Positions 31,764 to 60,228 of a stretch of DNA of 64,000 bases are shown here, one piece after another. The stretch is from assembly GCA_963786955.1 (NCBI GenBank), contig CAWBAT010000008.1:96001-160000 (forward strand), read 5' to 3'. Under the pieces are notes generated by a model that had not been told where the DNA came from, searched no databases, and was given only the letters and a program-made list of their open reading frames with translations. This DNA comes from an uncultured Acidimicrobiia bacterium. GTDB taxonomy: Bacteria; Acidobacteriota; Terriglobia; Versatilivoradales; Versatilivoraceae. A program made the position numbers and the translations under genes. The number at the start of each line of letters is the position of its first letter. Position 1 is the stretch's first letter.

Positions 31764-31992
31764 GGGATTCATGGATCCCGCCAATTCGTGACGCGATCTG
31801 TCACAAATTCCGCCACGCCTTCTACCCCCCCCCGAGTATTTTCCTGCAAGAACAGCCGCACCAGTCCTGCAACATGCCTTTTTCCGTTCGCTAAGGAGGC
31901 GTTGCGTATGGTAATCTTTTTAAGGTTCCCGCCACTCATGATTTTGCGTGCGTGTCTATAAGTTTGAATTGTTCAGGATGGAAAGAAACTCT

Positions 31993-34575: not shown

Positions 34576-34577
34576 CT

Positions 34578-42737: not shown

Positions 42738-44807
42738 TTATTTGAGTGTCAATTCTAATGTTGTCGCAGAATGGGCAGGTAATTGTTGAGTGAATCTATC
42801 GCTCAAACCAGTAAGCCGTTGGTGCTGAACTTTAACTGGAGCGACCCCGAAATTGTTCAAAGACAAAAAGCTTTCCGAGGCGATTTGCCACAGATCACCA
42901 CTGGGCTCTACGGAACGGCCAAGGAGGCGGATTTGAACGCTCAAGGGCTCGGCTTCTTTCAGGTTCAGAAGATGCAAGAAAAGTTTACGTCCATCCTCCG
43001 AAAGAGTTGCGGTAGCGTCAAGGTATGGAATATTTTTCCAGCCGGCCTCTGGAACATCGTACATGGGAGATTGCTGCTCCACCTTGAGAAGCTTGGAGCC
43101 TGAGTGCGGCCCATAGATCTGCAGGGCTGTTCCCGAAGCCGTAATATAGGCTTCCGTACTGCTGGTACGAATGGTGCCCGTACTGTTGACCAGGTGAGTC
43201 CTACAGGCCAGGGGCAGTCGATCTCCGAGGCGCATGAAAACATGAAACATTCGGGCTGCAAATAAAGCCTGTTCCTGAGGCTGGTTAAAATCCCCACCGT
43301 ATTTGATGATCATATCCACGAGTCGAGCAAAGGAGGAATCCTTAGGCAGGCCCGGCGGCTCAGGACCGAAATCCGCCTCATTCCATTCGTCCAAAGCAAT
43401 CTGAATTTTCTTGGATCCCGTATTCGCCGCGTCAATCTTCGCGATTCTCTCGCGCAGAGTTTGCTCGACAAAAATGGGAGCCGCCACCACCGACCGGTAG
43501 AATTCCACAGGATGATTGAGATAAAACGGCGACTGGAAACCGAGCGCATAATAATAATGGATGGAGAGTAGATCGGCATGCTGTCCGCTGATCCGGGCGA
43601 CCGTCTCATTCCAATTACTCGTGGAGTCCAGGGTGTCGCCGACGGCAACAATTTGTAGTCCGGAATCGGCTTTGCGCATCGCATCTGCAAACTGGTTGAA
43701 ATACATGGCGTAACCTTCCGGAGTGGAGTGTCCTGGCTGGATGCTCAACCAGCTTTCATTGCCGACCCCCCAACTCTTTACGTGATAGGGCTCCGGGTGG
43801 CCGTTAGAAGCGCGGCGTGCCCCCCATTCTGAATTTCCGGGTCCATTGCAATATTCCACCCACTGGCGAGCCAGTTCCGGGCTGCCCGAGCCGAAATTCA
43901 CCGTGATGTAGGGCTGGGCCCCGACTAATCTGCAAAAGTGAATGAACTCGTCGGTCCCAAAATCGCTGGGATCGACCCGGGAGTCATAGCTATCCTGATT
44001 GGCATAGACCCCGACGGTGTGGGGTGCTCGTCGGTCTCGTGGGCCGATCGCTACTCGCCAATCATAAGTATCCGCAAAACCGCCCCCCGGCCAACGCAGG
44101 AGCGGGGGAGACATGGTCTTGGCCAACTCCACAACTTCTCTCCTGAATCCATCGACATGATCGCCGGGCATCAAGGAAGCGCCGCCGATCCAGACGATTC
44201 CGGGATGATTGAAGCGTATGCTGAAAACTGCGGGGTGAAGCCCATTGACCGGTTCTAATTTGAAATCGTAGCGATGCCAATCGCCTTGCTGTAAGGAGGT
44301 TTCAGAGCGGGCCAGGATTGTTCCATCCCGCTTCTCCAGTACGAAAGAAACCGTCTGAACGGCCGGTTCAGCTTTAATCCAAGCGTACCCTACGTATTCC
44401 TTTCCTCCAATCACTTCAAACCCGCTTTGCCATACTCCTCGCCATTCATTGGATAAGCCGGACAGGACGATTCGCTGTGAGGAGACTCCATCGATCGAGA
44501 GGTTACGATCAATCGCATAGCTGACATTCCTCTCCTCCGGATCTCCTGCCCAAGGGGCAGCGATGTTCATCTGTCCGACAGCGTCGAAGGGGTAGAATTT
44601 TCTATTCTGCAGCAGTTCAGCCCAGATGCCATGCTCGACCACACGGCCGTAGTGCTCAATAAACTGCCCGTATATTCCCGGGTTGATGGTATGCAATGGA
44701 GCGTTTATGTTGACTTCAAGTTCGGCCTGAACTTGGGCCATTCCTTGGATCGGAAAGGTCACCAGGATCATTCCTAAGAAGAGCTTCGTTATATTGGGCC
44801 CGCGCAT
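42738..44807 (-). CDS. GH51 alpha-L-arabinofuranosidase with CBM4/9-like insert
   Basis: Signal peptide; IYGQFIEH, RWPGG, FGTDEF, WVEYCN, GNE (acid/base), DEWN (nucleophile). Confidence 0.9.
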   Translation of the reverse strand: MRGPNITKLFLGMILVTFPIQGMAQVQAELEVNINAPLHTINPGIYGQFIEHYGRVVEHGIWAELLQNRKFYPFDAVGQMNIAAPWAGDPEERNVSYAIDRNLSIDGVSSQRIVLSGLSNEWRGVWQSGFEVIGGKEYVGYAWIKAEPAVQTVSFVLEKRDGTILARSETSLQQGDWHRYDFKLEPVNGLHPAVFSIRFNHPGIVWIGGASLMPGDHVDGFRREVVELAKTMSPPLLRWPGGGFADTYDWRVAIGPRDRRAPHTVGVYANQDSYDSRVDPSDFGTDEFIHFCRLVGAQPYITVNFGSGSPELARQWVEYCNGPGNSEWGARRASNGHPEPYHVKSWGVGNESWLSIQPGHSTPEGYAMYFNQFADAMRKADSGLQIVAVGDTLDSTSNWNETVARISGQHADLLSIHYYYALGFQSPFYLNHPVEFYRSVVAAPIFVEQTLRERIAKIDAANTGSKKIQIALDEWNEADFGPEPPGLPKDSSFARLVDMIIKYGGDFNQPQEQALFAARMFHVFMRLGDRLPLACRTHLVNSTGTIRTSSTEAYITASGTALQIYGPHSGSKLLKVEQQSPMYDVPEAGWKNIPYLDATATLSEDGRKLFLHLLNLKEAEPLSVQIRLLGRSVEPSGDLWQIASESFLSLNNFGVAPVKVQHQRLTGLSDRFTQQLPAHSATTLELTLK

Positions 44808-45014: not shown

Positions 45015-45064
45015 CCCCCCCCTCACCCCCAACCCCTCTCCCGCGTTGGGGCGAGGGGAGCCGA
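45015..45064. repeat. REP family B copy
   Basis: CCCCTCACCCCCAACCCCTCTCCCGCGTTGGGGCGAGGGGAGCCGA. Confidence 0.7.
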
Positions 45065-45156
45065 AAATCTTCAGCGTTCTCGATACCTTGCTCACGCTTG
45101 GAGGAGAGGGCAACCGAAGATCTCTTGATTTGAATTCGAGAGGGAGGAAAACAATC

Positions 45157-47169
45157 ATGGATAGGCGAAAGTTCCTCAAAAACTCTCTGTTCGCATTGGG
45201 CGGCTCCGCTTTGACAGCAGGTTTGGAGTCCTGCAAACCCTCCAGTGTGGCAAAGTTGAACAAGAACACGAAACTCGTGATTGATTACCCACAAAAGAAC
45301 ATCCCGGTACTCGAACTCCCGCCTTGCCGCGGTGAGTGGTATGAAGACATCATCCCCGACACGCTCGACATTGCGAGCCGCTCCGAGTTGGCGATCAACG
45401 CACTAACCGGGATTACCGATCCCGATGCAGACTACGAGGTCTATTGGCAGGCCGAGCTTTTCCGTAATCCTCCGATCATGATGCATGACCATAATGACTG
45501 GGTGGCCAGCGTTGAGGGATTCATGGAAGCACTGCCGCTACTGCGGGCGGCCACGGGAAGCGATCTGAACACGCAGGTGGATTTGGCTTGGATGCAAGTG
45601 AACCTAAAGACCGTTGGGTCGGACGGCCTGGTCTACGAAATACTCAGCGGAACTCCGTGGAGCCGGCTCAATCCCTGGAGCTTCGCAACGGTTTGGAAAG
45701 CTGATGGAAGGAGCACCAGCGCCGCAGATGAGTCGGTGAAACTGGCCACCACTCCGGCGAAATGTGGGCGAGTCATCGGGGCCATGACGGTTTATTACCT
45801 TCGCGATAGAAACCCCGTCTGGATGCAAACGAGTGAGCGGATGATTCAGCGTTTGCTGGAATTGACGGTTGACCGGGGTGACTTTGCGTATGTTCCTTGG
45901 GGCGCCTACGAGCCTCACGCAAAATACGGTCCCCAAGCCAAGATGCCAACTGGGTTTGACTCCGTCGACTACGGAAACATCCGAATGATTCAGGGCCTGG
46001 CGCAATACTACCGGGTAACCGGGTACGAGCCTGCTCGTCAATTAGCCGCGAAACTAGTGGCCTACGGGATGGGGCCTGCGGAGTACTATGACGAACAAGG
46101 GCGCTTCCTTTTTTCACCACTGGAACGAGAAGCGCTGATGACCTCAACGCGGATGAAGAGGAATTACCCGGAGGCAAAGGATGCCAAGTTGGGCGGGCAT
46201 TTCCACGCCCATACCATCGGAATGATCAGCATCCTGGAGTATGCCGCGGCGGTGAAGGATCAAAAGGCGCTGCACTATATCAACTCGGGATTCCAGTGGG
46301 CCATGACCCAGGGCTCAACGCTCGTGGGATTCTTTCCCGAACTGGCCATCAATAATCGCTACCTTACCTGCGAGAGTTGCGAGGTGGCGGATATGATCGG
46401 GATGGGTGTGAAACTGTCCGACGCGGGTGTGGGAGATTATTGGGACGACATCGACCGCTGGGTGCGGAACCAATTCACGGAACAGCAGCTTACCGATGCG
46501 AAATGGTTTTACGAGCTGGCCCAGACTCAGCCTGTGAAGCCGGTGGCATTCAACGAAACAGCCGAGCGGTTGGCGGAGCGGAATATCGGCGCTTTTGCCG
46601 GCTGGGCGAGCGCCAATGAGTGGGCGACGTTGATCGGCATTCAACAATGCTGCCTGGGAAATTCCGCACGGGCACTCTATTATGTGATGGAAAGCATCGT
46701 GCAGACGCAAGGGAAGCAGTTGCGCGTGAATCTGCTGCTCAACCGGGCGACCCGGTGGGTTGACGTGTACAGCTACATCCCATACGAGGGCCGAGTGGAA
46801 CTGAAATTCAAGAAACCCTCTGAGAAAGTGTTGGTCCGTGCTCCTGAGTGGATCAAGAGCGGCAGCCATGAGATTGTGTGTCAAGTAAACGGCGCAAGGC
46901 GAAACTGTCATTGGCAAGGCCGCTATCTGGATGGGGGCCACGCCGTACCGGGCGATAAATTCGTCGTCACATTCCCGATCGCAGAACGGACGGTAAAGGA
47001 GACGATTGGAGATGTCCCCTATACGTTGACTATCAAGGGCAGTACCGTTACTTCGATCGATCCACCCGGTACCATCGGTCCACTTTACAATCGCGCTTAC
47101 TACCGCCAGGAGGAAGCACCCCTTCGGAAAGTAAAACGCTTCCTGCCTGAACAGACCATTGTTTGGTAA
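45157..47169 (+). CDS. Tat-exported distant GH127/GH146-like cysteine glycosidase (beta-L-arabinofuranosidase-like)
   Basis: DRRKFLK; ESC..ADM and CCLGN motifs match the ExC and CC Zn/Cys ligands of GH127; C-terminal PYEG.V..., VRAPEW sandwich. Confidence 0.68.
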   Translation: MDRRKFLKNSLFALGGSALTAGLESCKPSSVAKLNKNTKLVIDYPQKNIPVLELPPCRGEWYEDIIPDTLDIASRSELAINALTGITDPDADYEVYWQAELFRNPPIMMHDHNDWVASVEGFMEALPLLRAATGSDLNTQVDLAWMQVNLKTVGSDGLVYEILSGTPWSRLNPWSFATVWKADGRSTSAADESVKLATTPAKCGRVIGAMTVYYLRDRNPVWMQTSERMIQRLLELTVDRGDFAYVPWGAYEPHAKYGPQAKMPTGFDSVDYGNIRMIQGLAQYYRVTGYEPARQLAAKLVAYGMGPAEYYDEQGRFLFSPLEREALMTSTRMKRNYPEAKDAKLGGHFHAHTIGMISILEYAAAVKDQKALHYINSGFQWAMTQGSTLVGFFPELAINNRYLTCESCEVADMIGMGVKLSDAGVGDYWDDIDRWVRNQFTEQQLTDAKWFYELAQTQPVKPVAFNETAERLAERNIGAFAGWASANEWATLIGIQQCCLGNSARALYYVMESIVQTQGKQLRVNLLLNRATRWVDVYSYIPYEGRVELKFKKPSEKVLVRAPEWIKSGSHEIVCQVNGARRNCHWQGRYLDGGHAVPGDKFVVTFPIAERTVKETIGDVPYTLTIKGSTVTSIDPPGTIGPLYNRAYYRQEEAPLRKVKRFLPEQTIVW

Positions 47170-47243: not shown

Positions 47244-49349
47244 ATGAAAGTGTACAAAAACCGTTTTCAGATTCTTAGGCGTCATACAGGTTATCTTTTG
47301 CTTACAGCCTGCTTTTGTCTGGGGGCATCCGAGTCCGGATGGGCGCAAATTCGCGCAGAGTTGCGAGTCACTCCGAGTATTCCACTTCACAAAGTTGATC
47401 CTCACATTTACGGACAGTTCCTCGAACATTTCGGTCGGGTCATTAACGGTGGGTTGTGGGCCGAGTTATTACGCAATCGAAAGTTTTATCCGGTTGATCC
47501 CGACCGCATTCATGTCGCGGATCCCTGGAAACCCGAATCAGACCTCAGCGCCGTCAGCTACGTCATTGATCGGTCGATTACGCTGGATGGAATCTCTTCC
47601 CAGCGGATCTCCACTTTCGGAAAAGAGTCCAGCTGGAGGGGAATCCGCCAAACTGGATTCGATCTGCTGGGTGGGAAAGAATATGTGGCCTATGCCTGGA
47701 TCCGGACCGGATCGGGGAAGGGAAATGTTTCCTTCCGTTTGGAATCGGCTGAAGGTGTCGCCGCCGCCCATGCTGAGGTGCGGTTGGAACCGGGCGACTG
47801 GAAGAAATACGAAGTGCGCCTGACGCCAGATCGCGATTTGCGACCAGCCGTTTTCCGTCTGGCCTTCGATGCTACGGGTCAGAACTGGGTGGGTGAGGCC
47901 TCGCTCATGCCGGCCGACAACATCGGTGGCATGAGGCGTGACGTCATTGAGCTCACAAAGAATCTGGGACCAACCATTATGCGCTGGCCGGGGGGCGGCT
48001 ACAGTGATTCCTACGATTGGCGCAAGGCGATCGGCCCACGCGAACGGCGTCCGCCTCAAGACATCCTGCCTTACGGGCAGCCTTACGGTTATGACAACGG
48101 CATCGACTCCGATGATTTTGGGACCGACGAATACATGAACTTCTGTCGGTTAGTCGGCGCAGATCCTTACATCAGTGCGAATTTTGGTTCGGGAACTCCG
48201 GAAATGGCAGCCCAATGGGTGGAGTACTGTAACGGATCGGTTCAAACGACTATGGGTGCTCGCCGGGCGGCCAATGGTCATCCTGAACCCTACGGAATCA
48301 AATACTGGACGATCGGGAATGAGATTTGGGGATCGTTCGAACTCGGTTGGATGAATGCAGAAGGATACTCGACTTACTATGCCCCGTTTGCCAAAGCCAT
48401 GCGGGCTGTGGACCCGACGATCCAGATCGTTGCCGTGGGCATGTTCCACGACCCGAACGTCCGGACGTGGAATGAGACCGTCCTCCAGCAGGAGTGGCCG
48501 CAGATTGATTTACTTTCTCTCCATCATTATTTTACAGGGCTTTTTGCACTGCCGGAATGGCGGAATAATCCTCTCCAGGCTTACAACGCGATCGTCGCCG
48601 AGCCAACCATTGCGGAACAGCGTGCCCGTGAAATGATCTCTCTGATGGATCAGATCACGGCAGGCCGGAAGAAGATTCTCATTGCTTTCGACGAGTGGAA
48701 TCAATTGACCTTGGATTTCCCTCCGCCCGTCAACACTCCGGAGCGCTCTGAACAGAACCAATTCATTGACCTGTTGAACAAGACGGGTCTGGACATCAAC
48801 TTGACCCATCGGGACGGGATCTTTGGCGCTCGTATGTTGCAGCTCTTCATGCGGCTGGGTGACCGCATCCCGATCGCCATCCGGACTCACCTGATCAACA
48901 GCCTCGGCTCAATCCGCAGTGATAGCACGCGTTCGTACATCACCGCTTCGGGCAAGGTCATGCAGCTCTACCGCTGGCACTCTGGCAGTGAACTCGTCAA
49001 GGTTGAACAGCAGTCTCCCGAGTTTGATGTCCCCGAGCAAGGATGGAAGGGCATCTCTTACCTCGATGCGGCCGCTACACGCTCAGCGGATGGGGCGAAG
49101 CTCTATCTGCATTTGATCAATCTTCACCCGAGTGAATCGATGGGGCTAAAGGTGGCCATCGCCCAAAGCGAGGTGGACCCCAAGGGAGACCTCTGGCAGA
49201 TTGCGCCGCAGGACTTTATCACCAGAAACGACTTCGGTGTGACAAACGTAGAAATCACCCATGAACAAAAGACAGGGTTACGCCCGGAGTTTACTTTACT
49301 CCTCCCACCTCATTCAATTTCAGTACTTGAGCTTCAGCTTCGAAGATAG
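47244..49349 (+). CDS. GH51 alpha-L-arabinofuranosidase with CBM-like insert (paralog of 42738-44807)
   Basis: IYGQFLEH, RWPGG, FGTDEY, WVEYCN, GNE, DEWN. Confidence 0.9.
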   Translation: MKVYKNRFQILRRHTGYLLLTACFCLGASESGWAQIRAELRVTPSIPLHKVDPHIYGQFLEHFGRVINGGLWAELLRNRKFYPVDPDRIHVADPWKPESDLSAVSYVIDRSITLDGISSQRISTFGKESSWRGIRQTGFDLLGGKEYVAYAWIRTGSGKGNVSFRLESAEGVAAAHAEVRLEPGDWKKYEVRLTPDRDLRPAVFRLAFDATGQNWVGEASLMPADNIGGMRRDVIELTKNLGPTIMRWPGGGYSDSYDWRKAIGPRERRPPQDILPYGQPYGYDNGIDSDDFGTDEYMNFCRLVGADPYISANFGSGTPEMAAQWVEYCNGSVQTTMGARRAANGHPEPYGIKYWTIGNEIWGSFELGWMNAEGYSTYYAPFAKAMRAVDPTIQIVAVGMFHDPNVRTWNETVLQQEWPQIDLLSLHHYFTGLFALPEWRNNPLQAYNAIVAEPTIAEQRAREMISLMDQITAGRKKILIAFDEWNQLTLDFPPPVNTPERSEQNQFIDLLNKTGLDINLTHRDGIFGARMLQLFMRLGDRIPIAIRTHLINSLGSIRSDSTRSYITASGKVMQLYRWHSGSELVKVEQQSPEFDVPEQGWKGISYLDAAATRSADGAKLYLHLINLHPSESMGLKVAIAQSEVDPKGDLWQIAPQDFITRNDFGVTNVEITHEQKTGLRPEFTLLLPPHSISVLELQLRR

Positions 49350-49528: not shown

Positions 49529-50728
49529 CTACTCATACTTCGCTCGGCCAAACAGGGTGAGGCCTACGACGTAAATCATACACAAAGCCGGAACCAGCAT
49601 TGCGACGCGCATCCCGATGTGGTCTCCAATCCAACCTTGTAAGGGCGGGACGACCGCAGCGGCGATGTAGGCTGTGCATAAGAGCCCCGAAATAGTGCCG
49701 TGATAGCCTTCGAAGCTGTTGATCGTGCCACTGAAGAGGAGAGGATAGAGGACTGAGGTGAAAAGCCCACAGCCTGCAAAGCCGATGGCTGTGACCAGCG
49801 TTGATCCGAACATAGCCACGAACACACTGACCAGCGCCATCACCGAGCAGAAGCGCATGACTTGGACAGTTCCAAACCGTTTCATGACGGCGCCGCCGAG
49901 GAGGCGTCCCATGCCCTGCATCCCCAAAAACAGCGCGAAGACGAACGCCGGCAGGCTGGGAAACACTTTCCCCAGAAATGTGGCGGCATTTGGGTTTGAA
50001 ACAGCTGCGGGCACGCCGTGAACATCTTCGAAGAATTTCGGAATCCAGAAATACATTCCTATTTCCGCCGCAGTATAAAGATACACCCCCAGACCGTAGG
50101 TCAGCAGAATCGGGTTGCGCAGCAATTTCCCTATCGCATGGAGATGGATTCCTTCGGTGTCCTTGGCACGGGGTGGGAAAGTGGAAAAGGCCAGAAAGGC
50201 CAGCAACACCAGGCAGACGATGGCGAATAAAAGGTAGTAGGCCTGCCAAGGCCTGCCGGTTCCACGAATGTATGCCAGGAGAAAGATGGCGAGGAACCCT
50301 CCAAACGTGGCACACGCGATCGTGAACGTCAAGTTGCGATGATAGTTCTGCGGCGTATCGAGTTGCTGGATCATGGGGCTGCCACTGGTTTGGAGCATTG
50401 TGATCCCAACACCGATCGCAAAGATCAAGGAAAGCAGCAACAAGTAGCTGTGCGACTGGGAGATCCAATAGCAGCCCAATGCCATCAGCGATACGCCTGC
50501 CAGGATCACTCGTCGCGCGCCGAGGCGATCTGCCAGCAAGCCACTGGGTATCGCGAACAATGACATGGCCACGGAAGCTGCTGACGCCAGCAGGCCTGCT
50601 GCAAAACGACTGAGTTGAAAATCCCGGATGATGTCCGGAGTGAGAGCGCCTAAAACACCCATTAATCCAAAAGTGAAATAGGCAAAAAGCATGACCCAAA
50701 GTAGGGAGGCAGGACGTTGCTGAGGCAC
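49529..50728 (-). CDS. MFS sugar permease (FucP/GluP-like)
   Basis: ~12 TM segments, LADRLGARR, LQTSGSP, YLYTAAEIG, VPPLQGWIGD. Confidence 0.85.
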   Translation of the reverse strand: MPQQRPASLLWVMLFAYFTFGLMGVLGALTPDIIRDFQLSRFAAGLLASAASVAMSLFAIPSGLLADRLGARRVILAGVSLMALGCYWISQSHSYLLLLSLIFAIGVGITMLQTSGSPMIQQLDTPQNYHRNLTFTIACATFGGFLAIFLLAYIRGTGRPWQAYYLLFAIVCLVLLAFLAFSTFPPRAKDTEGIHLHAIGKLLRNPILLTYGLGVYLYTAAEIGMYFWIPKFFEDVHGVPAAVSNPNAATFLGKVFPSLPAFVFALFLGMQGMGRLLGGAVMKRFGTVQVMRFCSVMALVSVFVAMFGSTLVTAIGFAGCGLFTSVLYPLLFSGTINSFEGYHGTISGLLCTAYIAAAVVPPLQGWIGDHIGMRVAMLVPALCMIYVVGLTLFGRAKYE

Positions 50729-50838
50729 GAAAACCTTTCCTTGGTTGAGAGGTGTTTGGAATCTTTGAGGATTGAGGATTAGATCTTATCGACCCTTGAA
50801 ATCCTTGATACTTCTCACTTCAAATTGAATGTGCCTCC

Positions 50839-50863
50839 TGGAGGGTTGGACTCCACGAAACCG
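50839..50863. repeat. Degenerate REP family A copy
   Basis: TGGAGGGTTGGACTCCACGAAACCG. Confidence 0.45.
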
Positions 50864-50907
50864 TCTTTTGGACGGGCGCCTGTCAAGCCAACAGCATAAG
50901 AATACGA

Positions 50908-51906
50908 TCATGCCGGCGCGGAGCCGTTCGGATTCAGTAAAGGCACTCCTTGTTCACGAAGCCAGTGGATCCAACCTTCGAGCTGATTAAGACGAAGCGG
51001 TTGATCGCTCACATGGACAGCGGGTTTCAATCCAAAACGTTCGAGTTTGCTCTTCCCTAGTGGATGATAGGGAAGCAGCTGAACCCCTGTGAGATTCGGC
51101 AACGAACGGGACAATGCGGCAATCGCCGCGAAGTGATCTTCCCGGTCGTTAAAGCCGGGAACGATGGGACACTGCAGTTGGATCCTGGCTCCTGCGTCGT
51201 GCAGGAAACGAAGATTTTGCAGGATGAGTTGGTTGGAGTGGCCTGTAAACTCAGCGTGGCGACCCGGATCGGTTTCCTTAAAGTCGTAAAGGAACAAATC
51301 GACCAAAGGTAAGACACGGAGGAATCGTTCCCGATTCGCAAAGCCAGCGGTTTCGAGACAACGATGAATCCCTTGTTCCTTAGTTGCGGACAGTAAGGCA
51401 ACAGCGAAATCGATCTGCGCCATGGGTTCTCCGCCGGACAGAGTTAAACCGCCGCCTGAGGTGACGTAGAAAGCTTTGTCCTGAACCACTTCCTTCATGA
51501 CCTCCTTCACGCTCATTGGGCGGCCCACGATTTCCACCGTACGCGTATCGCAAACCTCGGTGCAGTGGCCACAAGTAATGCAGTGCTCGCGGTCATACAC
51601 ATGGGTTATCGTCGAGTCGTCGGATTCTGAAGCGACAAGATGATGGGCGCCTTGGGGACACACTCGGACACACTCCCCGCAGCCCATACATTTCTCAGGA
51701 AGGAATGAAATGATCGGTGAAGGGCTCATCCCTTCGGGATTGTGGCACCACAGGCAGCGAAGGGGACAACCTTTGAGGAACACCGTTGTGCGGATTCCGG
51801 GTCCATCATGGATCGAGAAACGCTGGATATCAAAGACGCGTCCAAAAGGTTCGCCATTGATCCTTGCATTCTCAAACACAGTTTCAGCTTGCGGATTTTC
51901 TAGCAT
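50908..51906 (-). CDS. Glycyl-radical enzyme activating enzyme (radical SAM) with ferredoxin insert
   Basis: HDGPGIRT.VFLKGCPLRCLWCHNPE (CX3CX2C), CMGCGECVRVCP and CITCGHCTEVC, SGGEP, LLPYH; start 51906 (or 51951). Confidence 0.95.
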   Translation of the reverse strand: MLENPQAETVFENARINGEPFGRVFDIQRFSIHDGPGIRTTVFLKGCPLRCLWCHNPEGMSPSPIISFLPEKCMGCGECVRVCPQGAHHLVASESDDSTITHVYDREHCITCGHCTEVCDTRTVEIVGRPMSVKEVMKEVVQDKAFYVTSGGGLTLSGGEPMAQIDFAVALLSATKEQGIHRCLETAGFANRERFLRVLPLVDLFLYDFKETDPGRHAEFTGHSNQLILQNLRFLHDAGARIQLQCPIVPGFNDREDHFAAIAALSRSLPNLTGVQLLPYHPLGKSKLERFGLKPAVHVSDQPLRLNQLEGWIHWLREQGVPLLNPNGSAPA

Positions 51907-51947
51907 GCATTTCCAACCAGCGACGTCCTGAACGGTCGTCGCAAGTA

Positions 51948-54174
51948 TCAATGTTCACAGAGGATTCGATCCACAACGAACTGACGCATCTCGGGTGAAA
52001 GACTGGCAAAATAAGCACTGAATCCCGTTACGCGAACGATTAGATCCGGAAACTTCGAGGGGTCTTTATGCGCCTCGAGGATCTGTTGGTTGTTCAAGAT
52101 GTTGATATTCACCTGAGTGCCGCCTAACTCACAATGCCCGCGAATCAAGGCCGCGACTTTGTCAACATCGTCGGGAGTGTTCGTGAGGCTAGGATCGAGG
52201 TCGATCTGGAGTGGAGAGGCGTTTCCGTATCCGGACTGAACCGAAGCCACGGCCACGGCCAGTGCGGTCGGAGCGCCATCCTTGCGGAAGCCCGGGTCGG
52301 GATTGGCGCCATGAGAGATGGGGTCACCGGCATGGCGGCCATTGGGTGTGGCCCCGATTTTCCTTCCCATCGAAAGGTTAAGCACCCAGGAGAAAAGTCC
52401 GGGAATCATCATGAATCCCCGAGGCGTGGTTTTCTCTTTCACCGTTTCGGAGAAGGCCTGGGAGATGCGAACTGCCCACTCATCGCCTAAGGAGCCGCCG
52501 CTTCCGAAGCGTGGAGAGTTCTTCATCATGATGCGAGCCCGCTCACCCTCGGGGCCGGTCCAGTTTGATTCAAGGTGCGTGCGCAACTCCTCCCACGTGA
52601 GGCGGGGCTGTTTCTCGAGACGTTGTTCCAATGCGGCAAAGGAATCGGCCGCGGTGGCCAGTGCCGCGCCATCCACTCCGAAGGTATAGTACTCAACGCC
52701 GCCGTTGCTGGCGTCGAGGCCCTTTTCGATGGTTCCATGGCAAAGGAGATCGAGGACTAGTTCCGGGAATACCTTGTGAAAGTGTTCGTACTGGAAGTCG
52801 AACCCTTTGGCAACCGTGTCGACGGCAGCGTGAAGGTGCTGCCGGAATCGCTTCCAGAGGACAGCGACGCTGGGTTCGACCGCCGGGTGCGCCAGCACGT
52901 CTCGCCACGCGACTTCGAAGATGGCCGCAAAATTAACCTTGGCGATATCCATGAGCGCATACTCGCGCCCCGGAATGGCCAACCAATGGCAACCGGCATA
53001 GGCCCGCTCGCGGGCCAGCTCAAGGGGGAATCCATTGGCGGCGAAGCCCGCGACGGTGTTATCTACCCCCAGAAATTTGGGCACTCCGCAACGGTCTTCA
53101 AACAGGATTTCGACGCCGCGCCGGATCAACCGGGGGTCCACGTTCTTTCCGACGCAGACTCCAATGTTTGCCGGAATCCGCAACCGGTGAGCCGCTTCGA
53201 GGATTAGAAAAGATACGGGATTGGTGGCTTCCTGGCCGCGGGCATCCGGACCACCGAGTTGGATGTAAGCGGGATCGCGCACCAGATGGCACCCGATATG
53301 GAAGATGGCTTCTTCATCAGTCAGCCGACCGGCTTTGGTGTCGGCTAGATAGTAAGGCAGCAGGAGCACATCCAGGCGGCCGAGGGATCCGCTGGTGTTG
53401 TACATGCGGGCGATACTCTGGTACCAAAGAATCCACTGACAGGCTTCACGGAAGGTTCGCGGAGGGTTCGAAACCAAATACTCGTTCATCTCGGCAATCT
53501 CGAGCAGGTTTTGTCTCATCTCCTCGTTCTGGGCAGCCAGGCGGCGCGCAGCCTCGGCGTGACGCTGAATCCAGTCTTGTGCCCCCAGAACAACGTGCTC
53601 CAGCCCTGCATAGAAATCTTCACTCGCAGGATTGTTGACACGGTAACGATTAATTTTCTCAAGCAGCCCGCCCCAGCCGAGATTGAGCCCTATCTCCATG
53701 TCCTGGCACATGTGATTCACACCACCGATGGCCGGGATGGTTTGATACTTGGCATGTTCAGCAAGCAATTCGGAACAATCAATATCAGGATTCCAAACGA
53801 CTGTCCGGTAGGCCATGAAATTCACCATATAGGCCCCGGCAAGCGAGGACAGGGGATCGATGTAGACGGGATGAACTTCGAGAAGTCTGCGAAAGTTTTC
53901 CCCGGTGGAGCGAGGCCCGAAGAAACCACCACTGCGGATGATTCGGCGTGGGCCTGAACGTGTTCATGATGACATCAGTGAAATAGACTCCTGAACCGCC
54001 GAGAGTCTCGACGGTTTCGCGGATTTCCTTGGGCGGCAGGATGATCGCAAAATCATCGAAGTCCATGGCGCCGCGGACCTGCTGCTTTTCAAGCGTCTGC
54101 TGCTGTTTGCTCTCGCGAAGTGCCGCCAGGCGGTCATTAATGGAAAGTTGTTCGATGGTTCCTGTTGCTTTCAT
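51948..54174 (-). CDS. Glycyl radical enzyme, copy B, interrupted by a +1 frameshift at ~53935 (pseudogene or sequencing error)
   Basis: ORFs 53785-54174 and 51948-53828 together are colinear with copy A; actgCggatg vs actgggatg; YAGCHW and RVTGF retained. Confidence 0.85.
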
Positions 54175-54225
54175 AAGGAAGGTCTCCTGTACCGATTCTC
54201 AAGAATACGAAGGCCGCCGCAAGTA

Positions 54226-56451
54226 TCAATGTTCACAGAGGATTCGATCCACAACGAACTGACGCATCTCGGGTGAAAGACTGGCAAAATAAGCACTGAA
54301 TCCCGTTACGCGAACGATCAGATCCGGAAACTTCGAGGGGTCTTTATGCGCCTCGAGGACCTGCTGGTTGTTCAAGACATTGATATTCACTTGAGTGCCG
54401 CCTAACTCGCAATGCCCGCGAATCAAGGCCAAGACCTTGTCAACATCCTCGGATGTGTTCGTGAGGCTGGGATCGAGGTCAATCTGGAGCGGAGAGGCGT
54501 TCCCGTATCCCGGCTGAACCGAAGCCACGGCCACGGCCAGTGCGGTCGGAGCGCCATCCTTGCGGAAGCCCGGGTCGGGATTGGCGCCATGAGAGATGGG
54601 GTCGCCCGCATGCCGGCCATTGGGTGTAGCCCCGATTTTTCTTCCCATCGAAAGGTTGAGCACCCAGGAGAACAGGCCCGGAATCATCATGAAACCCCGG
54701 GGGGTGGGTTTTTCCTTCACGGTCTCGGTAAAAGCCTGGGAAATGCGAACTGCCCACTCGTCGCCTAAAGAACCGCCGCTTCCGAAGCGCGGGGAGTTCT
54801 TCATCATGATGCGAGCGCGCTCACCTTCGGGGCCCGCCCAGTCTGATTCCAGGTGCGCGCGCAACTCTTCCCACGTCAGGCGGGGCCTTTTCTCGAGACG
54901 TTGTTCCAATGCGGCAAAGGAATCGGCCGCGGTGGCCAGTGCCGCGCCATCCACTCCGAAGGTATAGTACTCAACGCCGCCGTTGCTGGCGTCGAGGCCC
55001 TTTTCGATGGTTCCATGGCAGAGGAGATCGAGGACAAGTTCCGGGAAAATCTTGTGAAAATGTTCGTACTGGAAATCGATACCCTTGGCCACTGTGTCCA
55101 TTGCAGAACGCAAGTGTTGCCGGAATCGCTCCCACAGCACGGCGACGCTGGGCTCGATCGTCTTGTCTGCCAACATCTCTCGGAGCGCCACTTCGAAAAT
55201 AGCGGCCAGATTCACTTTGACGATATCCATGAGCGCATACTCGCGCCCCGGAATGGCCAGCCAGTGGCAACCCGCGTAGACGCGATCGCGAGCTAGCTCC
55301 AGGGGAAATCCATTCGCGGCAAAGCCCGCGACGGTATTATCTACCCCCAGAAATTTGGGCACTCCGCAACGGTCTTCAATCAGAATTTCGACGCCACGCC
55401 GGATCAACCGGGGATCCACGTTCTTGCCGACGCACACTCCAATGTTTGCCGGAATCCGCAGCCGGTGAGCCGCTTCCAGGATCAGGAAAGAAACGGGATT
55501 AGTGGCGTCCTGACCGCTGGCATCCGGACCGCCGAGTTGGATGTAAGCGGTGTCGCGCACCAAGTGACATGCGATATGGAAGATGGCTTCTTCATCGGTC
55601 AGCCTTCCGGCCCGGGTGTCGGCTTCGTAGTAAGGGAGGAGGATTACATCGAGCCTACCGAGGGATCCGCTGCTGTTGTACATGCGGGCGATACTCTGGT
55701 ACCACAGAATCCACTGGCAGGCTTCGCGGAAAGTTCGCGGCGGATTCGAAACCAAATATTCGTTCATCTCGGCAATCTCGAGCAGATTCTGTTTCATCTC
55801 CACGTCCTCGGCAGCCATGCGGCGCGCAGCCTCGGCGTGACGCTGAATCCAGTCTTGTGTCCCCAGAACAACGTGCTCCAGTCCTGCATAGAAATCTTCA
55901 CTCGCGGGGTTGTTGGCCCGGAAACGATTGATTTTTTCGAGGATACCTCCCCAGCCCAGTTTCAGCCCCATCTCCATATCCTGGCACATGTGCTGCACGC
56001 CGCCGATGGCCGGAATAGTTTGATACTTGGCATGTTCAGCAAGCAGTTCGGAAGAATCAATATCCGGATTCCAGACGACCGTCCGGTAGGCCATGAAATT
56101 CACCATATAGGCTCCGGCAAGAGAGGATATGGGATCGATGTAGACTGGATGGGTTTCGAGAAGTCTGCGAAAATTTTCGCCATTGGAGCGAGGCCCGAAG
56201 AAACCACCACTGGGATGATTGGGCGTTGGACTGAACGTGTTCATGATCACGTCAGTGAAATAAACTCCCGAGCCACCAAGAGTCTGTATGGTTTGGCGAA
56301 TTTCCTTGGGCGGCAGGATGATTGCGTGATCATCAAAGTCCATGGCGCCGCGGATCTGCTGCTTTTCAAGCGTCTGGTGCTGTTTGCTCTCGCGCAGCGC
56401 CGCCAGGCGGTCAATAGTGGAAAGTCGTTCCATGGTTCCGGTTGGTTTCAT
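54226..56451 (-). CDS. Glycyl radical enzyme (PFL-like family), copy A, uncharacterised class
   Basis: PPRTFREACQ, SLGRLD, IQLGG, Cys loop YAGCHW, GATPNGR, C-terminal glycyl motif LIVRVTGFSAYF. Confidence 0.93.
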   Translation of the reverse strand: MKPTGTMERLSTIDRLAALRESKQHQTLEKQQIRGAMDFDDHAIILPPKEIRQTIQTLGGSGVYFTDVIMNTFSPTPNHPSGGFFGPRSNGENFRRLLETHPVYIDPISSLAGAYMVNFMAYRTVVWNPDIDSSELLAEHAKYQTIPAIGGVQHMCQDMEMGLKLGWGGILEKINRFRANNPASEDFYAGLEHVVLGTQDWIQRHAEAARRMAAEDVEMKQNLLEIAEMNEYLVSNPPRTFREACQWILWYQSIARMYNSSGSLGRLDVILLPYYEADTRAGRLTDEEAIFHIACHLVRDTAYIQLGGPDASGQDATNPVSFLILEAAHRLRIPANIGVCVGKNVDPRLIRRGVEILIEDRCGVPKFLGVDNTVAGFAANGFPLELARDRVYAGCHWLAIPGREYALMDIVKVNLAAIFEVALREMLADKTIEPSVAVLWERFRQHLRSAMDTVAKGIDFQYEHFHKIFPELVLDLLCHGTIEKGLDASNGGVEYYTFGVDGAALATAADSFAALEQRLEKRPRLTWEELRAHLESDWAGPEGERARIMMKNSPRFGSGGSLGDEWAVRISQAFTETVKEKPTPRGFMMIPGLFSWVLNLSMGRKIGATPNGRHAGDPISHGANPDPGFRKDGAPTALAVAVASVQPGYGNASPLQIDLDPSLTNTSEDVDKVLALIRGHCELGGTQVNINVLNNQQVLEAHKDPSKFPDLIVRVTGFSAYFASLSPEMRQFVVDRILCEH

Positions 56452-56840: not shown

Positions 56841-59543
56841 GTGAATCGATCAAAGTACGGAATTATCGGGAAAGTTCTTCTCGGAAGTTTATGGGTCCTG
56901 ATGGTAGCGAGCCTGCTCCTGCAACCCGCGTATTCTCAAGAGGCAGGGGAGTCTGCGGGGCAAGCATTTCGCAATCCATCGTTACCTCTGGGGCAGCGCG
57001 TCGATGACTTGATTTCAAAAATGACCCTCGAGGAGAAAGTGCTTCAGATGCAGAATGCGGCTCCAGCGATTCCCAGGCTGAGGGTTCCAGCCTATGACTG
57101 GTGGAGTGAAGGACTGCATGGGGTAGCTCGTTCAGGGCATGCCACGGTATTTCCGCAAGCAATTGGAATGGCGGCCTCCTGGAATCCCGACCTCATTTTT
57201 CGCGAAGGCCGCGTCATCTCCACCGAAGCCCGAGCCAAATACAACCAGGCCCAGCGGGAAAATATCCACGGCACTTATTTTGGACTCACGTTTTGGTCAC
57301 CCAACATCAATATCTTTCGTGACCCTCGCTGGGGACGCGGTCAGGAGACCTACGGAGAAGATCCCTATCTGACCGGAAAGCTGGGAGTTGCCTTCGTCAA
57401 GGGAATGCAAGGGGATGATCCAAAATATCTGCAAACCGTAGCGACACCCAAGCATTATGCCGTTCATAGCGGTCCAGAGTCGAAGCGGCACGGGTTCAAC
57501 GTGAATATATCCACACATGATCTGGAGGATACGTACCTACCGGCTTTTCGTGCAACCGTCGTAGAAGGGAGCGCAGACTCGGTGATGTGCGCTTATAATT
57601 CCGTGGACGGTGAGCCGGCTTGTGCCAATCCATTCCTGCTTCAAAAGACGTTGCGGGATGCCTGGGGTTTTCAGGGTTATGTCACTTCCGACTGCTTCGC
57701 CATCACGGATTTCACCGCCGGGCACCACTTCACACCGGATGCCATGCACGCCTCGATCGCGGCGGTGCGCGCCGGGACAGATCTTACTTGCGGGGAAGAG
57801 TATGTGACACTGGCAAAAGCCGTCCAAGGGGGGTTGATCAAGGAAAGCGAGCTCGACACTTCACTGCGACGCTTATTTACGGCGCGGTTCCGGCTTGGCA
57901 TGTTCGATCCACCGGGTGCGGTTCCTTTTGATCAAATCCCCTTTACGAAGAATGACTCCCCCGAACATCGAAACCTTGCCTTGCAAGCTGCCCGTGAATC
58001 GATGGTGCTGCTTAAGAACAAAGATGGAGTGCTCCCCCTCAAGCCCAGCGTGAAGAAGATCGCGGTGGTGGGCCCGAATGCCGAAGCGTTGATTTCGCTG
58101 GAAGGGAACTACAATGGGGCCCCATCGAAACCCGTATTACCGCTGGAGGGCATGCGCAGACAGTTTGCAGGCAAGGCCGAAGTGCTCTACGCGCAGGGCT
58201 CTTCCTTTGTGGCGGAATTGCCCGTGCCAGTCCCTAGTACGGTGTTGCAATCCCGTGCACAATTGACGAACTCAGGACTCAAAGCCGAGTATTTCGCGAA
58301 TCTTGACTTCACAGGGAAGCCGGAGCTCGTGCGCCTCGATCCGCAGATTCAGTTTGACTGGAGTGGCGCGTCCCCCGCACCGGGAATTCCCATGCACGCC
58401 TTTGCCGTGCGCTGGAGCGGAACTCTGACTCCGCCAGCCCCCGGAGATTACACATTTGGGATTGAACAACCATTCTGCTGGCCTTGTGAAGACAAAGAGA
58501 CTTTCAGCCTCTATTTAGATGAAAAGCTCGTGTTGAGCAGCATCCAGGAAAATCGTAACCCGGCGGTACCGCAGTTTCAGACGCATTTCGCGGATGCGAA
58601 GCCACATAATTTTCGCCTGGAATATACCCACCGGGCGGAATTGTACGCTGCGGGCCTCACGCTTGTCTGGAAGGCACCAGCCGAAGTGTTGCGCGAAGAA
58701 GCCGTAAAGACAGCCCGACGCGCTGATGTGGTCGTTGCATTCATCGGGCTCTCACCGGGATTGGAAGGCGAGGAGATGGGTGTCCGCGTTGAAGGCTTCA
58801 ATGGGGGGGACCGCACAGACATCGGTTTGCCGCGTGCTCAGCAGGATCTAGTGGAGGCGTTGAAAGCCACCGGGAAACCTCTGATCGTGGTGCTCATGAA
58901 TGGCAGTGCGCTTGCCGTTAATTGGGCCGAGGAACATGCCGCGGCAATTCTGGAAGCTTGGTATCCGGGCGGGGAAGGCGGCACGGCGATTGCTGAAACG
59001 CTCGCCGGCCTGAACAATCCTGGCGGGAGGCTGCCCATCACCTTCTACGCCTCGCTCGACCAGTTTCCTTCGTTTGACGAATACTCCATGCAAAATCGAA
59101 CCTACCGGTATTTTCGGGGCAAACCGCTCTATGGATTTGGCTACGGCTTGAGTTATGCAAAGTTTGCTTATAGCAAACTCAAGCTCTCTTCGTCCCAGGT
59201 CAAGGCCGGCGATCCGCTTAAGCTCGAGGTCAATGTGCGCAACACCGCGAAGGTCGCGGGCGATGAAGTTGTGCAGCTCTATCTTTCGAAACATGAAAAC
59301 GCCCCAGCGCAGCTGGTCCGTGCGCTGCGGGGATTTGAGCGGATTCATCTGGCCCCGGGTGAAACGAAGCAAGTCACATTTGCGCTGAGTCCGCGTGAAT
59401 TGAGCCTGGTTACAGAACAAGGAGAACACGCGATTCTACCCGGCAAATATCAGTTATTTGTAGGAGGCAGCCAGCCCGGGCAGGGCTCATCGGGTGCCGA
59501 GGCAAGTTTTGAGACGATCGGCGAAGTGAAATTACCCAGGTAG
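56841..59543 (+). CDS. GH3 beta-glucosidase/beta-xylosidase with PA14 and Fn3-like domains
   Basis: WWSEGLHG, WSPNINIFRDPRWGRGQETYGEDP, KHYAVH, VTSDC, PA14 insert, GEEM, FGYGLSY; GGAGGG RBS + GTG. Confidence 0.94.
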   Translation: MNRSKYGIIGKVLLGSLWVLMVASLLLQPAYSQEAGESAGQAFRNPSLPLGQRVDDLISKMTLEEKVLQMQNAAPAIPRLRVPAYDWWSEGLHGVARSGHATVFPQAIGMAASWNPDLIFREGRVISTEARAKYNQAQRENIHGTYFGLTFWSPNINIFRDPRWGRGQETYGEDPYLTGKLGVAFVKGMQGDDPKYLQTVATPKHYAVHSGPESKRHGFNVNISTHDLEDTYLPAFRATVVEGSADSVMCAYNSVDGEPACANPFLLQKTLRDAWGFQGYVTSDCFAITDFTAGHHFTPDAMHASIAAVRAGTDLTCGEEYVTLAKAVQGGLIKESELDTSLRRLFTARFRLGMFDPPGAVPFDQIPFTKNDSPEHRNLALQAARESMVLLKNKDGVLPLKPSVKKIAVVGPNAEALISLEGNYNGAPSKPVLPLEGMRRQFAGKAEVLYAQGSSFVAELPVPVPSTVLQSRAQLTNSGLKAEYFANLDFTGKPELVRLDPQIQFDWSGASPAPGIPMHAFAVRWSGTLTPPAPGDYTFGIEQPFCWPCEDKETFSLYLDEKLVLSSIQENRNPAVPQFQTHFADAKPHNFRLEYTHRAELYAAGLTLVWKAPAEVLREEAVKTARRADVVVAFIGLSPGLEGEEMGVRVEGFNGGDRTDIGLPRAQQDLVEALKATGKPLIVVLMNGSALAVNWAEEHAAAILEAWYPGGEGGTAIAETLAGLNNPGGRLPITFYASLDQFPSFDEYSMQNRTYRYFRGKPLYGFGYGLSYAKFAYSKLKLSSSQVKAGDPLKLEVNVRNTAKVAGDEVVQLYLSKHENAPAQLVRALRGFERIHLAPGETKQVTFALSPRELSLVTEQGEHAILPGKYQLFVGGSQPGQGSSGAEASFETIGEVKLPR

Positions 59544-59589: not shown

Positions 59590-60228
59590 GTGTCCAACAT
59601 TCACCGACTCAAGACCACGGATAAGTTATTCTTCATTACAACCAATTTGAACATAGGTGATCGGCCGTTTAACGAACCGGAATACCAGATCGTTGCCGAA
59701 ACGATCAACAGCGAAAGGCGGCGGCTCGGTTTCTTACTCTTTGGCTATGTACTGATGCCCGATCACTGGCACGCGCTCATTTGGCCCCCGTTGCCGATCA
59801 GCATATCGGGCATTTTGCGGAATGTGAAACGGGTGTCGTCGTCCAAGATCAACCGTCTGCGGCAAACGAGCGGGTCACGGTGGCAGCATCAGTTCTGGGA
59901 TCGGTTTGTCCGCGATACCCAGGAATTTGGAGAACGGTTGAAGTACATGCACATGAACCCGGTCCGCAAGGGTTTGATCGAGAAGCCAGAACAGTGGCGT
60001 TGGTCCAATTACAATAATTTCTCCCTCGACAAATCCATCGTGGCCATCTGTCCAGTCCAAATCGACTATGTTCACCTACCAGACAATTACCGTGCGAAAC
60101 AATCGGTAGCCACAATTGAACGCTGTTCGTTCAATCGTGGATGGGGGCGTGTGAATTACGTGGTATTTAGCTTCGCACATCCAGCCGTTCATGCTGGCGG
60201 AGAGGAGAGACGAGGGCCCAGAGGATGA
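59590..60228 (+). mobile_element. REP-associated tyrosine transposase (RAYT, Y1_Tnp family)
   Basis: FFITT, YVLMPDHWHALI (HUH), WQHQFWDRFVR, YMHMNPVRKGL, WRWS. Confidence 0.88.

Follow-up and report, generated by a model that had tools for sequence, protein, structure and literature searches.

Glycyl radical enzymes (GREs) carry out chemically difficult anaerobic reactions, and newly assigned GRE clades have so far revealed new metabolism, namely of choline, hydroxyproline, sulfonates and anhydro-sugars. The anhydro-sugar enzymes PflD and YbiW, the closest described relatives of the proteins discussed here, are C-O lyases/isomerases of 1,5-anhydromannitol-6-phosphate and 1,5-anhydroglucitol-6-phosphate (PDB 8YJO, 8ID0, 8ID7). 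In a 2026 GRE review (Imrich et al., PMC13450708), the CXE motif of the Cys loop is described as kept in all characterised eliminases and isomerases, with a Glu that hydrogen-bonds the substrate, is catalytically essential where tested and, in the YbiW/PflD mechanism, deprotonates the C2-OH. The review also speaks of whole GRE clades still without experimental validation, and in the portions considered here it mentions no GRE class with a Trp in the loop. Here we describe an operon with two such Trp-loop GREs, an activating enzyme and a permease of the major facilitator superfamily (MFS), located on the minus strand (49529-56451) of a 64,000-nucleotide stretch of an uncultured bacterium of Acidobacteriota lineage (assembly GCA_963786955.1, contig CAWBAT010000008.1, positions 96,001 to 160,000; hereafter the window). 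An original prediction, made from the letters of the window, had proposed an uncharacterised GRE class with a sugar-related substrate, and its view that characterised eliminases and isomerases use a GCxE-type loop agrees with the CXE statement of the review. Judged by alignment, tree and predicted structure, the xCxW GREs, as we call them, are a real and new GRE variant, and in anoxic soils and sediments the operon probably serves to convert a carbohydrate-derived compound by an as yet undescribed reaction.

The four consecutive co-oriented genes and their catalytic codons, from open reading frame (ORF) calling and translation, are as follows.

54226-56451, minus strand: GRE-A, 741 amino acids, matching PF02901 (302.9 bits) and PF01228 (51.7 bits), both above cut-off
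55267-55269, minus strand: codon of the catalytic Cys395 of GRE-A in the loop YAGC-H-W, with Trp397 at the position of the CXE glutamate
54301-54303, minus strand: codon of the glycyl-radical Gly717 of GRE-A in RVTGF, with a PF01228 match
51948-54174, minus strand: GRE-B, a tandem paralogue beginning 51 nt downstream of GRE-A, matching PF02901 (288 bits) and PF01228
52989-52991, minus strand: Cys codon of GRE-B in YAGCHW
52023-52025, minus strand: Gly codon of GRE-B in RVTGF
50908-51951, minus strand: GRE activating enzyme, 347 codons, with Radical_SAM and several 4Fe-4S ferredoxin (Fer4) Pfam domains
49529-50728, minus strand: MFS permease, 399 codons, MFS_1 111 bits

ORFs, translations and Pfam domains all bear out the four co-oriented genes that had been predicted, both Cys codons in YAGCHW lie exactly where they had been placed, and the RVTGF motif is present in both GREs.

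The xCxW clade among glycyl radical enzymes

GRE-A combines a PFL-like barrel and glycyl domain, the motif RVxG[FYW], a loop Cys and an adjacent cognate radical-SAM activase, the features of the GRE superfamily, and this combination marks it as a genuine GRE served by its own activase. An AlphaFold2 model from a 47-sequence alignment reached a pLDDT of 93 and a pTM of 0.92, and a Foldseek search with it returned PflD, propanediol dehydratase, glycerol dehydratase (GD) and CutC at TM ~0.78-0.82 and 20-24% identity, PflD being the top match (8yjo_A, TM 0.80) and, together with propanediol dehydratase, the best at TM 0.80-0.81. Among PDB sequences, 37 distinct chains match GRE-A at E <= 0.001, and the best is likewise E. 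coli PflD (8yjo_A, 2.6e-66). Cys395 is aligned with the catalytic Cys of PflD, HpsG, CutC and GD, and the segment C395-H-W397 falls on their C-V-E or C-T-E, with Trp on Glu in 5/5 PDB alignments shown. Cys395 and the glycyl Gly are invariant in 47/47 aligned family members, Asp409 is invariant in the same alignment and corresponds to GD Asp447, and His154 aligns with GD His164. About 11 residues are deleted in GRE-A where PflD has '...saryfagfptgY' and GD carries Tyr339; in several GREs an aromatic residue of the active site comes from this loop. The Pfam PFL-like model leaves the first ~145 residues uncovered, and a GAMDFDD-type motif occurs in 73/121 close family members by regular expression.

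A word-indexed homologue search, in which 7999 candidates were scored and 2160 reached E <= 0.001, yielded close relatives from several phyla. The best 120 homologues are 64-97% identical to GRE-A, nearly all of them 735-750 amino acids long, come from metagenome-assembled genomes (MAGs) labelled Terriglobia/Acidobacteria, Kiritimatiellae, Lentisphaerae, Anaerolineae and Chloroflexi, and bear the public names 'formate C-acetyltransferase' or 'pyruvate formate-lyase'. All 121 proteins of at least 600 amino acids, the two copies of the window included, have GC[H/Q]W (111 with H, 10 with Q), and the glycyl motif of the same 121 reads RVTGF in 118 and RVTGY in one, with no match in two. An exhaustive search of representatives gave 5087 clusters at E <= 0.001, and among the best 150, which were inspected, the Cys loop changes from xCxW (x = H, Q, N, F, Y, G, P) to GCxE at ~30% identity.

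We built a FastTree phylogeny of 93 rows from 83/150 representatives (those below 680 or above 950 amino acids were left out), six close relatives, GRE-A and E. coli PflD, YbiW and PflB, the last as outgroup. All 28 xCxW rows form one clade with a local support of 100 and no foreign row inside, while PflD and YbiW are placed elsewhere, far from it. Glu occupies position Cys+2 in 55/64 non-clade rows vs 0/28 clade rows. Trp397 is found in 100% of the clade and 0% of the other rows, and Glu471 in 100% and 2%, respectively; W167, R256, N624, P654, T716, D41 and L476 are further positions conserved in the clade and rare outside it, and H154, D268, D278, D487 and a GATPxGR segment are common to the clade and other GREs. 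GRE-A has the Trp at Cys+2, Glu471, the short 303/304 loop and the length of ~700-760 amino acids that define the clade, and lies within its monophyletic group. On these alignments and this tree, xCxW is a distinct, conserved and widely transferred clade with Trp in place of the Cys-loop Glu. Its sister in the tree is a GC(N/A/G)Q trio (P0201, P0207, P0219; 728-745 amino acids), which represents another uncharacterised loop variant.

No characterised GRE family accommodates GRE-A, which scores below every curated NCBIfam GRE cut-off. The highest-scoring curated model is TIGR01774 (273 bits, cut-off 678); the other scores were 249 bits for the PflD equivalog (NF007437, cut-off 1109), 212 for HpsG and 192 for HpfG (cut-off 1000 for both), 197 for HypD (1100), 183 for CutC (1050), 137 for IAD (NF033718, 1100), 119 for HPAD (NF033715, 1150) and 97.3 for pyruvate formate-lyase (PFL; TIGR01255, 994.2). 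Trp397 holds the column in which CXE enzymes have their Glu, and the G-C-H-W loop has no Cys-Cys pair as PFL does. The arylacetate decarboxylases HPAD and IAD are set apart by their low equivalog scores and by the lack of a small-subunit ORF, the ORF list of the window containing no small ORF between the GRE and activase genes. The ESM Atlas returned generic PFL/GRE clusters and nothing more specific, and a full-text literature search found no paper on the xCxW clade, with the limit that clusters in supplementary sequence similarity networks may include it. The proposal of an uncharacterised GRE class is thus upheld by the failure at all curated cut-offs, by a monophyletic clade apart from PflD, YbiW and PflB, and by the review, in which no such class is listed.

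The activase carries a CX3CX2C radical-SAM motif and an insert with two CX2CX2CX3C ferredoxin-type motifs; an internal Met may be its true start. It scores above the cut-off of the GRE-activase subfamily TIGR02494 (339.9 bits, cut-off 174.35) and below the cut-off of every substrate-specific activase equivalog in NCBIfam. The permease scores 78.6 bits against gluP and 62 bits against FucP, both below cut-off, and is a distant relative of the FucP/GluP (FHS) sugar transporters. Between GRE-A and GRE-B, the ratio of nonsynonymous to synonymous substitution rates (dN/dS) is 0.105 over 626 codons (dS 0.41) and 0.18 over the 78 codons upstream of a frame break in GRE-B. xCxW GREs are under purifying selection, as this ratio indicates, and are coupled to uptake systems. 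A promoter/terminator scan of the operon found 5 promoter-like sites vs 3.6 expected and was uninformative. In the RNA run X19, 7 small contigs of 90-99% likeness cover the activase and both GREs, which we did not count as expression since DNA carry-over is possible and the matches are assembled contigs.

Gene neighbourhoods and proposed function

ORFs were called in all loci and clustered by BLAST, and 64 related loci with a GRE ORF together with the window make up the 65 compared here. The activase adjoins the GRE in 29/65 loci and lies somewhere in the locus in 32/65. A GRE-activase-MFS core is present in 9 loci including the window, all of the Acidobacteriota type (MFS cluster c4). As operon mates we considered same-strand, closely spaced genes other than GREs and activases, 124 in total. 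The commonest family among them is GFO/IDH/MocA (12/124), a family that includes anhydrofructose reductases and levoglucosan dehydrogenase, and a weak levoglucosan-dehydrogenase match was present among the neighbour proteins. The further families are MFS (9/124), ManD-like dehydratases of the enolase superfamily (5/124), ABC permeases (5/124), fructosamine kinases (4/124), DHDPS-type aldolases, SBP_bac_1 and URO-D (3/124 each), and lyxose isomerase, GH32, GH28, SIS and FGGY (2/124 each). Because the operon mates are mostly sugar oxidoreductases, transporters, sugar-acid dehydratases, kinases and glycosidases, the carbohydrate-related role first proposed for this locus holds in general terms, and the overall context is carbohydrate-related but heterogeneous. 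The lack of a kinase or dehydrogenase noted for the window does not extend to the family, given the GFO/IDH/MocA genes and an FGGY carbohydrate kinase directly upstream of the GRE in two loci (L003 and L004), with a fragment nearby in a third (L065).

A different arrangement is seen in five Anaerolineae loci (L015, L018, L032, L059, L060), where the ManD-like gene (415 bits) lies directly upstream of the GRE. The upstream block in these loci comprises DUF362, an MBL-fold hydrolase, a fructosamine-kinase-like protein, unassigned proteins of 566 and 130 amino acids and the ManD-like dehydratase, and GH20-like and GH116 genes recur downstream on the opposite strand. This block may represent a second, different pathway context for xCxW GREs.

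We favour, with somewhat more confidence than an even chance would warrant, an uptake-and-conversion module for an imported neutral carbohydrate-derived compound that would undergo C-O cleavage by the xCxW GRE. The FHS-type MFS permease would import a neutral carbohydrate-derived small molecule, and the radical-SAM activase would generate the glycyl radical at Gly717 in one of the paralogous GREs or in both. A thiyl radical on Cys395 would then abstract a hydrogen atom from the imported compound, and a C-O bond would be broken next, by dehydration or ring-opening isomerisation. The substrate might be a free, non-phosphorylated sugar, an anhydro- or deoxy-sugar, a polyol or a sugar acid. An unphosphorylated substrate is plausible because the core is permease-coupled, without a phosphotransferase system (PTS), and the xCxW GRE probably acts on an imported neutral sugar derivative. 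In the active site, Trp397 could stack on the substrate, acid/base help would come from outside the Cys loop, with His154, Asp409 and possibly the clade-specific Glu471 assisting C-O cleavage, and the deletion of the aromatic loop would enlarge the pocket. From sequences and the model we infer the class of substrate, the type of reaction and what Trp397, Glu471 and His154 do in it. More tentatively, and at rather less than an even chance, xCxW may constitute a new mechanistic GRE class whose Cys loop has exchanged its base for Trp, with the part of the base taken by a relocated Glu471 or made needless by base-independent radical chemistry; the class would act directly on free non-phosphorylated sugars or anhydro-/deoxy-sugars.

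Several observations weigh against the uptake-and-conversion module. Activase and GRE are adjacent in only 29/65 loci, a figure lowered in part by short contigs; gene content varies from one neighbourhood to the next, and no one pathway partner recurs in most loci. The commonest non-activase neighbour, a URO-D/MtaA-like protein (cluster c2; 14 loci), is no obvious carbohydrate enzyme. The association with GH51 and arabinose seen in the window is not conserved and is local to its own lineage: the GH51-like cluster c16 occurs in 4 loci, all of the Acidobacteriota type, and the neighbourhood check did not sustain the predicted link to arabinose release. The MFS permease scores far under the FucP and GluP cut-offs. 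Moreover, the loss of the Glu argues against a plain copy of the eliminase/isomerase mechanism, and the substrate, the product and the glycyl radical are predictions here.

A narrower version of the module, which we consider unlikely, is a free-sugar counterpart of the YbiW/PflD 'anhydroglycolysis', where the GRE would open a non-phosphorylated anhydro-alditol (1,5-anhydroglucitol, 1,5-anhydromannitol or a pentose analogue) to a 1-deoxy-ketose that is passed to an FGGY kinase. The FGGY genes beside the GRE in L003, L004 and, as a fragment, L065 would suit this route, as would a permease-coupled instead of a PTS-coupled uptake, the prevalence of GFO/IDH/MocA operon mates, the position of PflD as best sequence and structural match, and the post-Cys segment IPGR(E/T)Y..D common to GRE-A and PflD. 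However, the very CXE Glu to which the review ascribes the deprotonation of the C2-OH in YbiW/PflD is missing from GRE-A, the PflD equivalog score is far from its cut-off (249 bits vs 1109), E. coli PflD and YbiW are distant from the clade in the tree, and no conserved adjacent aldolase equivalent to FsaA was seen.

Similarly unlikely is a non-carbohydrate substrate, for instance a methylated or amino compound that the GRE would process jointly with the URO-D/MtaA-like neighbour, or else an organic acid to be decarboxylated; the glycosidase surroundings would then be coincidental. The URO-D/MtaA-like gene takes the usual place of the activase, directly after the GRE, in L009 (5885-6979) and L029 (4503-5603), and the protein matches PF01208 with 62 bits, with MtaA/CmuA models far below cut-off. 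A sister clade with GCxQ and the patchy, transfer-prone nature of the family (0/300 phylum genomes vs 2/2 of the genus) would also be compatible with such a substrate. On the other hand, the identifiable operon mates are mostly carbohydrate enzymes or transporters, neither a corrinoid protein nor a small GRE subunit was seen adjacent, and the decarboxylase equivalogs score far under their cut-offs.

We regard as improbable a reaction of the diol/glycerol dehydratase type on a small diol (1,2-propanediol, ethylene glycol or glycerol) arising from the breakdown of deoxy-sugars or sugar acids. While GD and propanediol dehydratase count among the closest structural matches, residues corresponding to GD His164 and Asp447 are conserved, and neighbouring sugar-acid dehydratases and DHDPS-type aldolases could yield lactaldehyde or glycolaldehyde, the Glu base is missing and TIGR01774 reaches 273 bits vs 678. 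Deletion of the aromatic loop that carries Tyr339 in GD points to a larger pocket, and a coupled sugar-type permease would be needless for a diol made inside the cell. Shell genes of bacterial microcompartments (BMCs) are found neither among the annotated ORFs of the window nor in the 25 commonest families of the 124 operon mates (rarer families being unlisted).

Finally, an ordinary PFL ('formate C-acetyltransferase') or a catalytically dead relic, as the public annotation names and the loss of the canonical Glu could hint, is effectively excluded by motif, score and selection tests: the Cys-Cys pair is absent, TIGR01255 gives 97 bits vs 994, the genome has a separate canonical PFL-like locus (541 bits to PF02901), the clade shows no variation at Cys, Gly, Trp and Glu471, dN/dS is 0.10, and a dedicated activase is present.

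Tandem copy, flanking genes and distribution

GRE-B had been taken as one intact gene, which the assembly does not support: DNA alignment with GRE-A places one extra base at window position 53935, CATCC[G]CAGT, which breaks the frame and splits the gene into two ORFs.

53785-54174, minus strand: upstream ORF of GRE-B, 129 codons, of which the first ~78 residues are homologous
51948-53828, minus strand: downstream ORF of GRE-B, 626 codons

GRE-B and GRE-A share 92% amino-acid identity over 626 residues. In contigs of related populations, taken from coded public runs and aligned at >=90% likeness, one base fewer is present at 53936 in 3/3 contigs spanning the site (one in X1 and two in X3; two studies). 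The low dN/dS between the two copies and these contigs without the extra base indicate that GRE-B is probably functional or mis-assembled; an old pseudogene was considered and rejected on the same two grounds. In the same genome, two reading frames each are needed to cover the canonical PFL-like gene and the PflA-like activase beside it (G000:C6:1062280-1065290; L072, L075, L077, L079), which reflects either assembly indels or real frameshifts, and because of these and of a GRE in pieces in the closest related locus (L061), assembly indel errors are plausible. None of the 64 related loci with a callable GRE ORF has two full-length GRE copies, and two other genomes of the genus have one GRE match each, which makes the tandem duplication unusual. 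One related-population contig of run X4 joins position 51932, shortly beyond where GRE-B ends, to 56486, shortly before GRE-A begins ('goes back 4555'), and suggests another copy order or number, or recombination between tandem copies, in relatives.

The operon is surrounded by the following genes.

42738-44807, minus strand: GH51-like gene, weak match
45046-47169, plus strand: ORF of 707 amino acids, matching no Pfam or NCBIfam model
47244-49349, plus strand: GH51-like gene, weak match
56841-59543, plus strand: GH3 glycosidase with PA14 and Fn3-like domains, divergent from GRE-A
59590-60228: IS200-like (Y1 transposase) ORF between the GH3 gene and a second MFS gene

The flanks also hold the second MFS gene and a GH116 fragment and, farther upstream, GH13-like and (alpha/alpha)6 glycosidase genes. 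The 'arabinose/xylose glycosidase island' named in the original prediction therefore stands as an island, with GH3, GH116, GH13-like and (alpha/alpha)6 genes flanking the operon, but not as an arabinose/xylose one, given the weak GH51 matches (E about 1e-7 to 1e-9). The 707-amino-acid ORF, earlier called GH127-like, lost that label for want of any Pfam or NCBIfam match. The IS200-like ORF adjoins a region, that of the GRE operon, with a patchy, genus-restricted distribution. Upstream of the glycosidase island (31948-36026) lies a planctomycete-type pair, PSCyt1/PSCyt2/PSD1 (DUF1549/DUF1553, 875 amino acids) followed by DUF1501 (482 amino acids).

A locus scan with one genome per species found 71 loci. 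Chloroflexota is the most frequent label (38), next to Acidobacteriota (9), Bathyarchaeota and Armatimonadota (3 each), Lentisphaerota, Planctomycetota, Poribacteria and Bacillota (2 each), Bacteroidota, Spirochaetota, Rhodothermota and Actinomycetota (1 each) and 6 loci without a recorded phylum. Within its own lineage, the GRE is present in 2/2 other genomes of the genus and was not found in 22 other genomes of the family, in 16 from other families of the class or in 300 other genomes sampled across the phylum (E <= 1e-120). This patchy distribution fits horizontal spread. Three MAGs labelled Bathyarchaeia (L024, L036, L037) carry the family at 59-62% identity, through either inter-domain transfer or a binning artefact; according to the review (PMC13450708), no archaeal PFL-like GRE has yet been given a function. 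The closest related locus, L061, is 92% identical and has the same order GH3 / GRE / activase / MFS / GH51-like. It is titled Acidimicrobiia and the other close relatives Terriglobia or Acidobacteriota, and the label looks inconsistent.

Significance and comparison with known systems

The xCxW clade breaks the one rule, CXE, that according to the review all characterised eliminases and isomerases obey. Even so, its conservation is strong and purifying selection acts on it. The 71 loci bear no fewer than 11 phylum labels, and the members of the clade come from MAGs of soils, sediments and digesters, where their public label is 'pyruvate formate-lyase'. Knowing their reaction would put right a mis-annotation that is widespread and enters the metabolic reconstruction of uncultured anaerobes. 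Such knowledge would also test how a GRE functions without a Cys-loop base, and it might bring to light a new way in which carbohydrates are turned over anaerobically. The xCxW GRE is a good target for enzyme discovery. If the tentatively proposed new mechanistic class were real, uncultured anaerobic polysaccharide degraders among the Anaerolineae, Acidobacteriota, Planctomycetota, Lentisphaerota and perhaps Bathyarchaeia would have a new radical entry into carbohydrate catabolism.

Of the known systems, PflB belongs to the same superfamily as GRE-A but has the Cys-Cys pair that GRE-A lacks. The 1,2-eliminases CutC, HypD, IslA/IseG and HpsG/HpfG share the PFL-like fold and the glycyl and Cys loops (profile E ~1e-44 to 1e-58); unlike GRE-A, they keep CXE with an essential Glu according to the review, and their equivalogs give 180-212 bits vs cut-offs of 1000-1100. 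The B12-independent glycerol and 1,2-propanediol dehydratases (PDB 1R8W/1R9D and 5I2G) superimpose at TM 0.78-0.81, and the equivalents of their active-site His and Asp are kept in GRE-A as H154 and D409, whereas Glu435 has no equivalent, the Tyr339 loop is deleted, TIGR01774 stays below cut-off and a BMC context is missing. From PflD/YbiW, GRE-A differs by Trp for Glu at Cys+2, by the ~11-residue aromatic-loop deletion, by a length shorter by ~25-70 residues and by its separate clade, with 22-24% identity to PflD in the structural alignment, and its locus has an MFS permease in place of the PTS coupling of PflD/YbiW. Common to GRE-A and PflD/YbiW are the GRE barrel, a single catalytic Cys, the IPGRxY..D segment and a conserved His/Asp pair, and both systems combine a ferredoxin-insert activase with a sugar-related context free of microcompartments.

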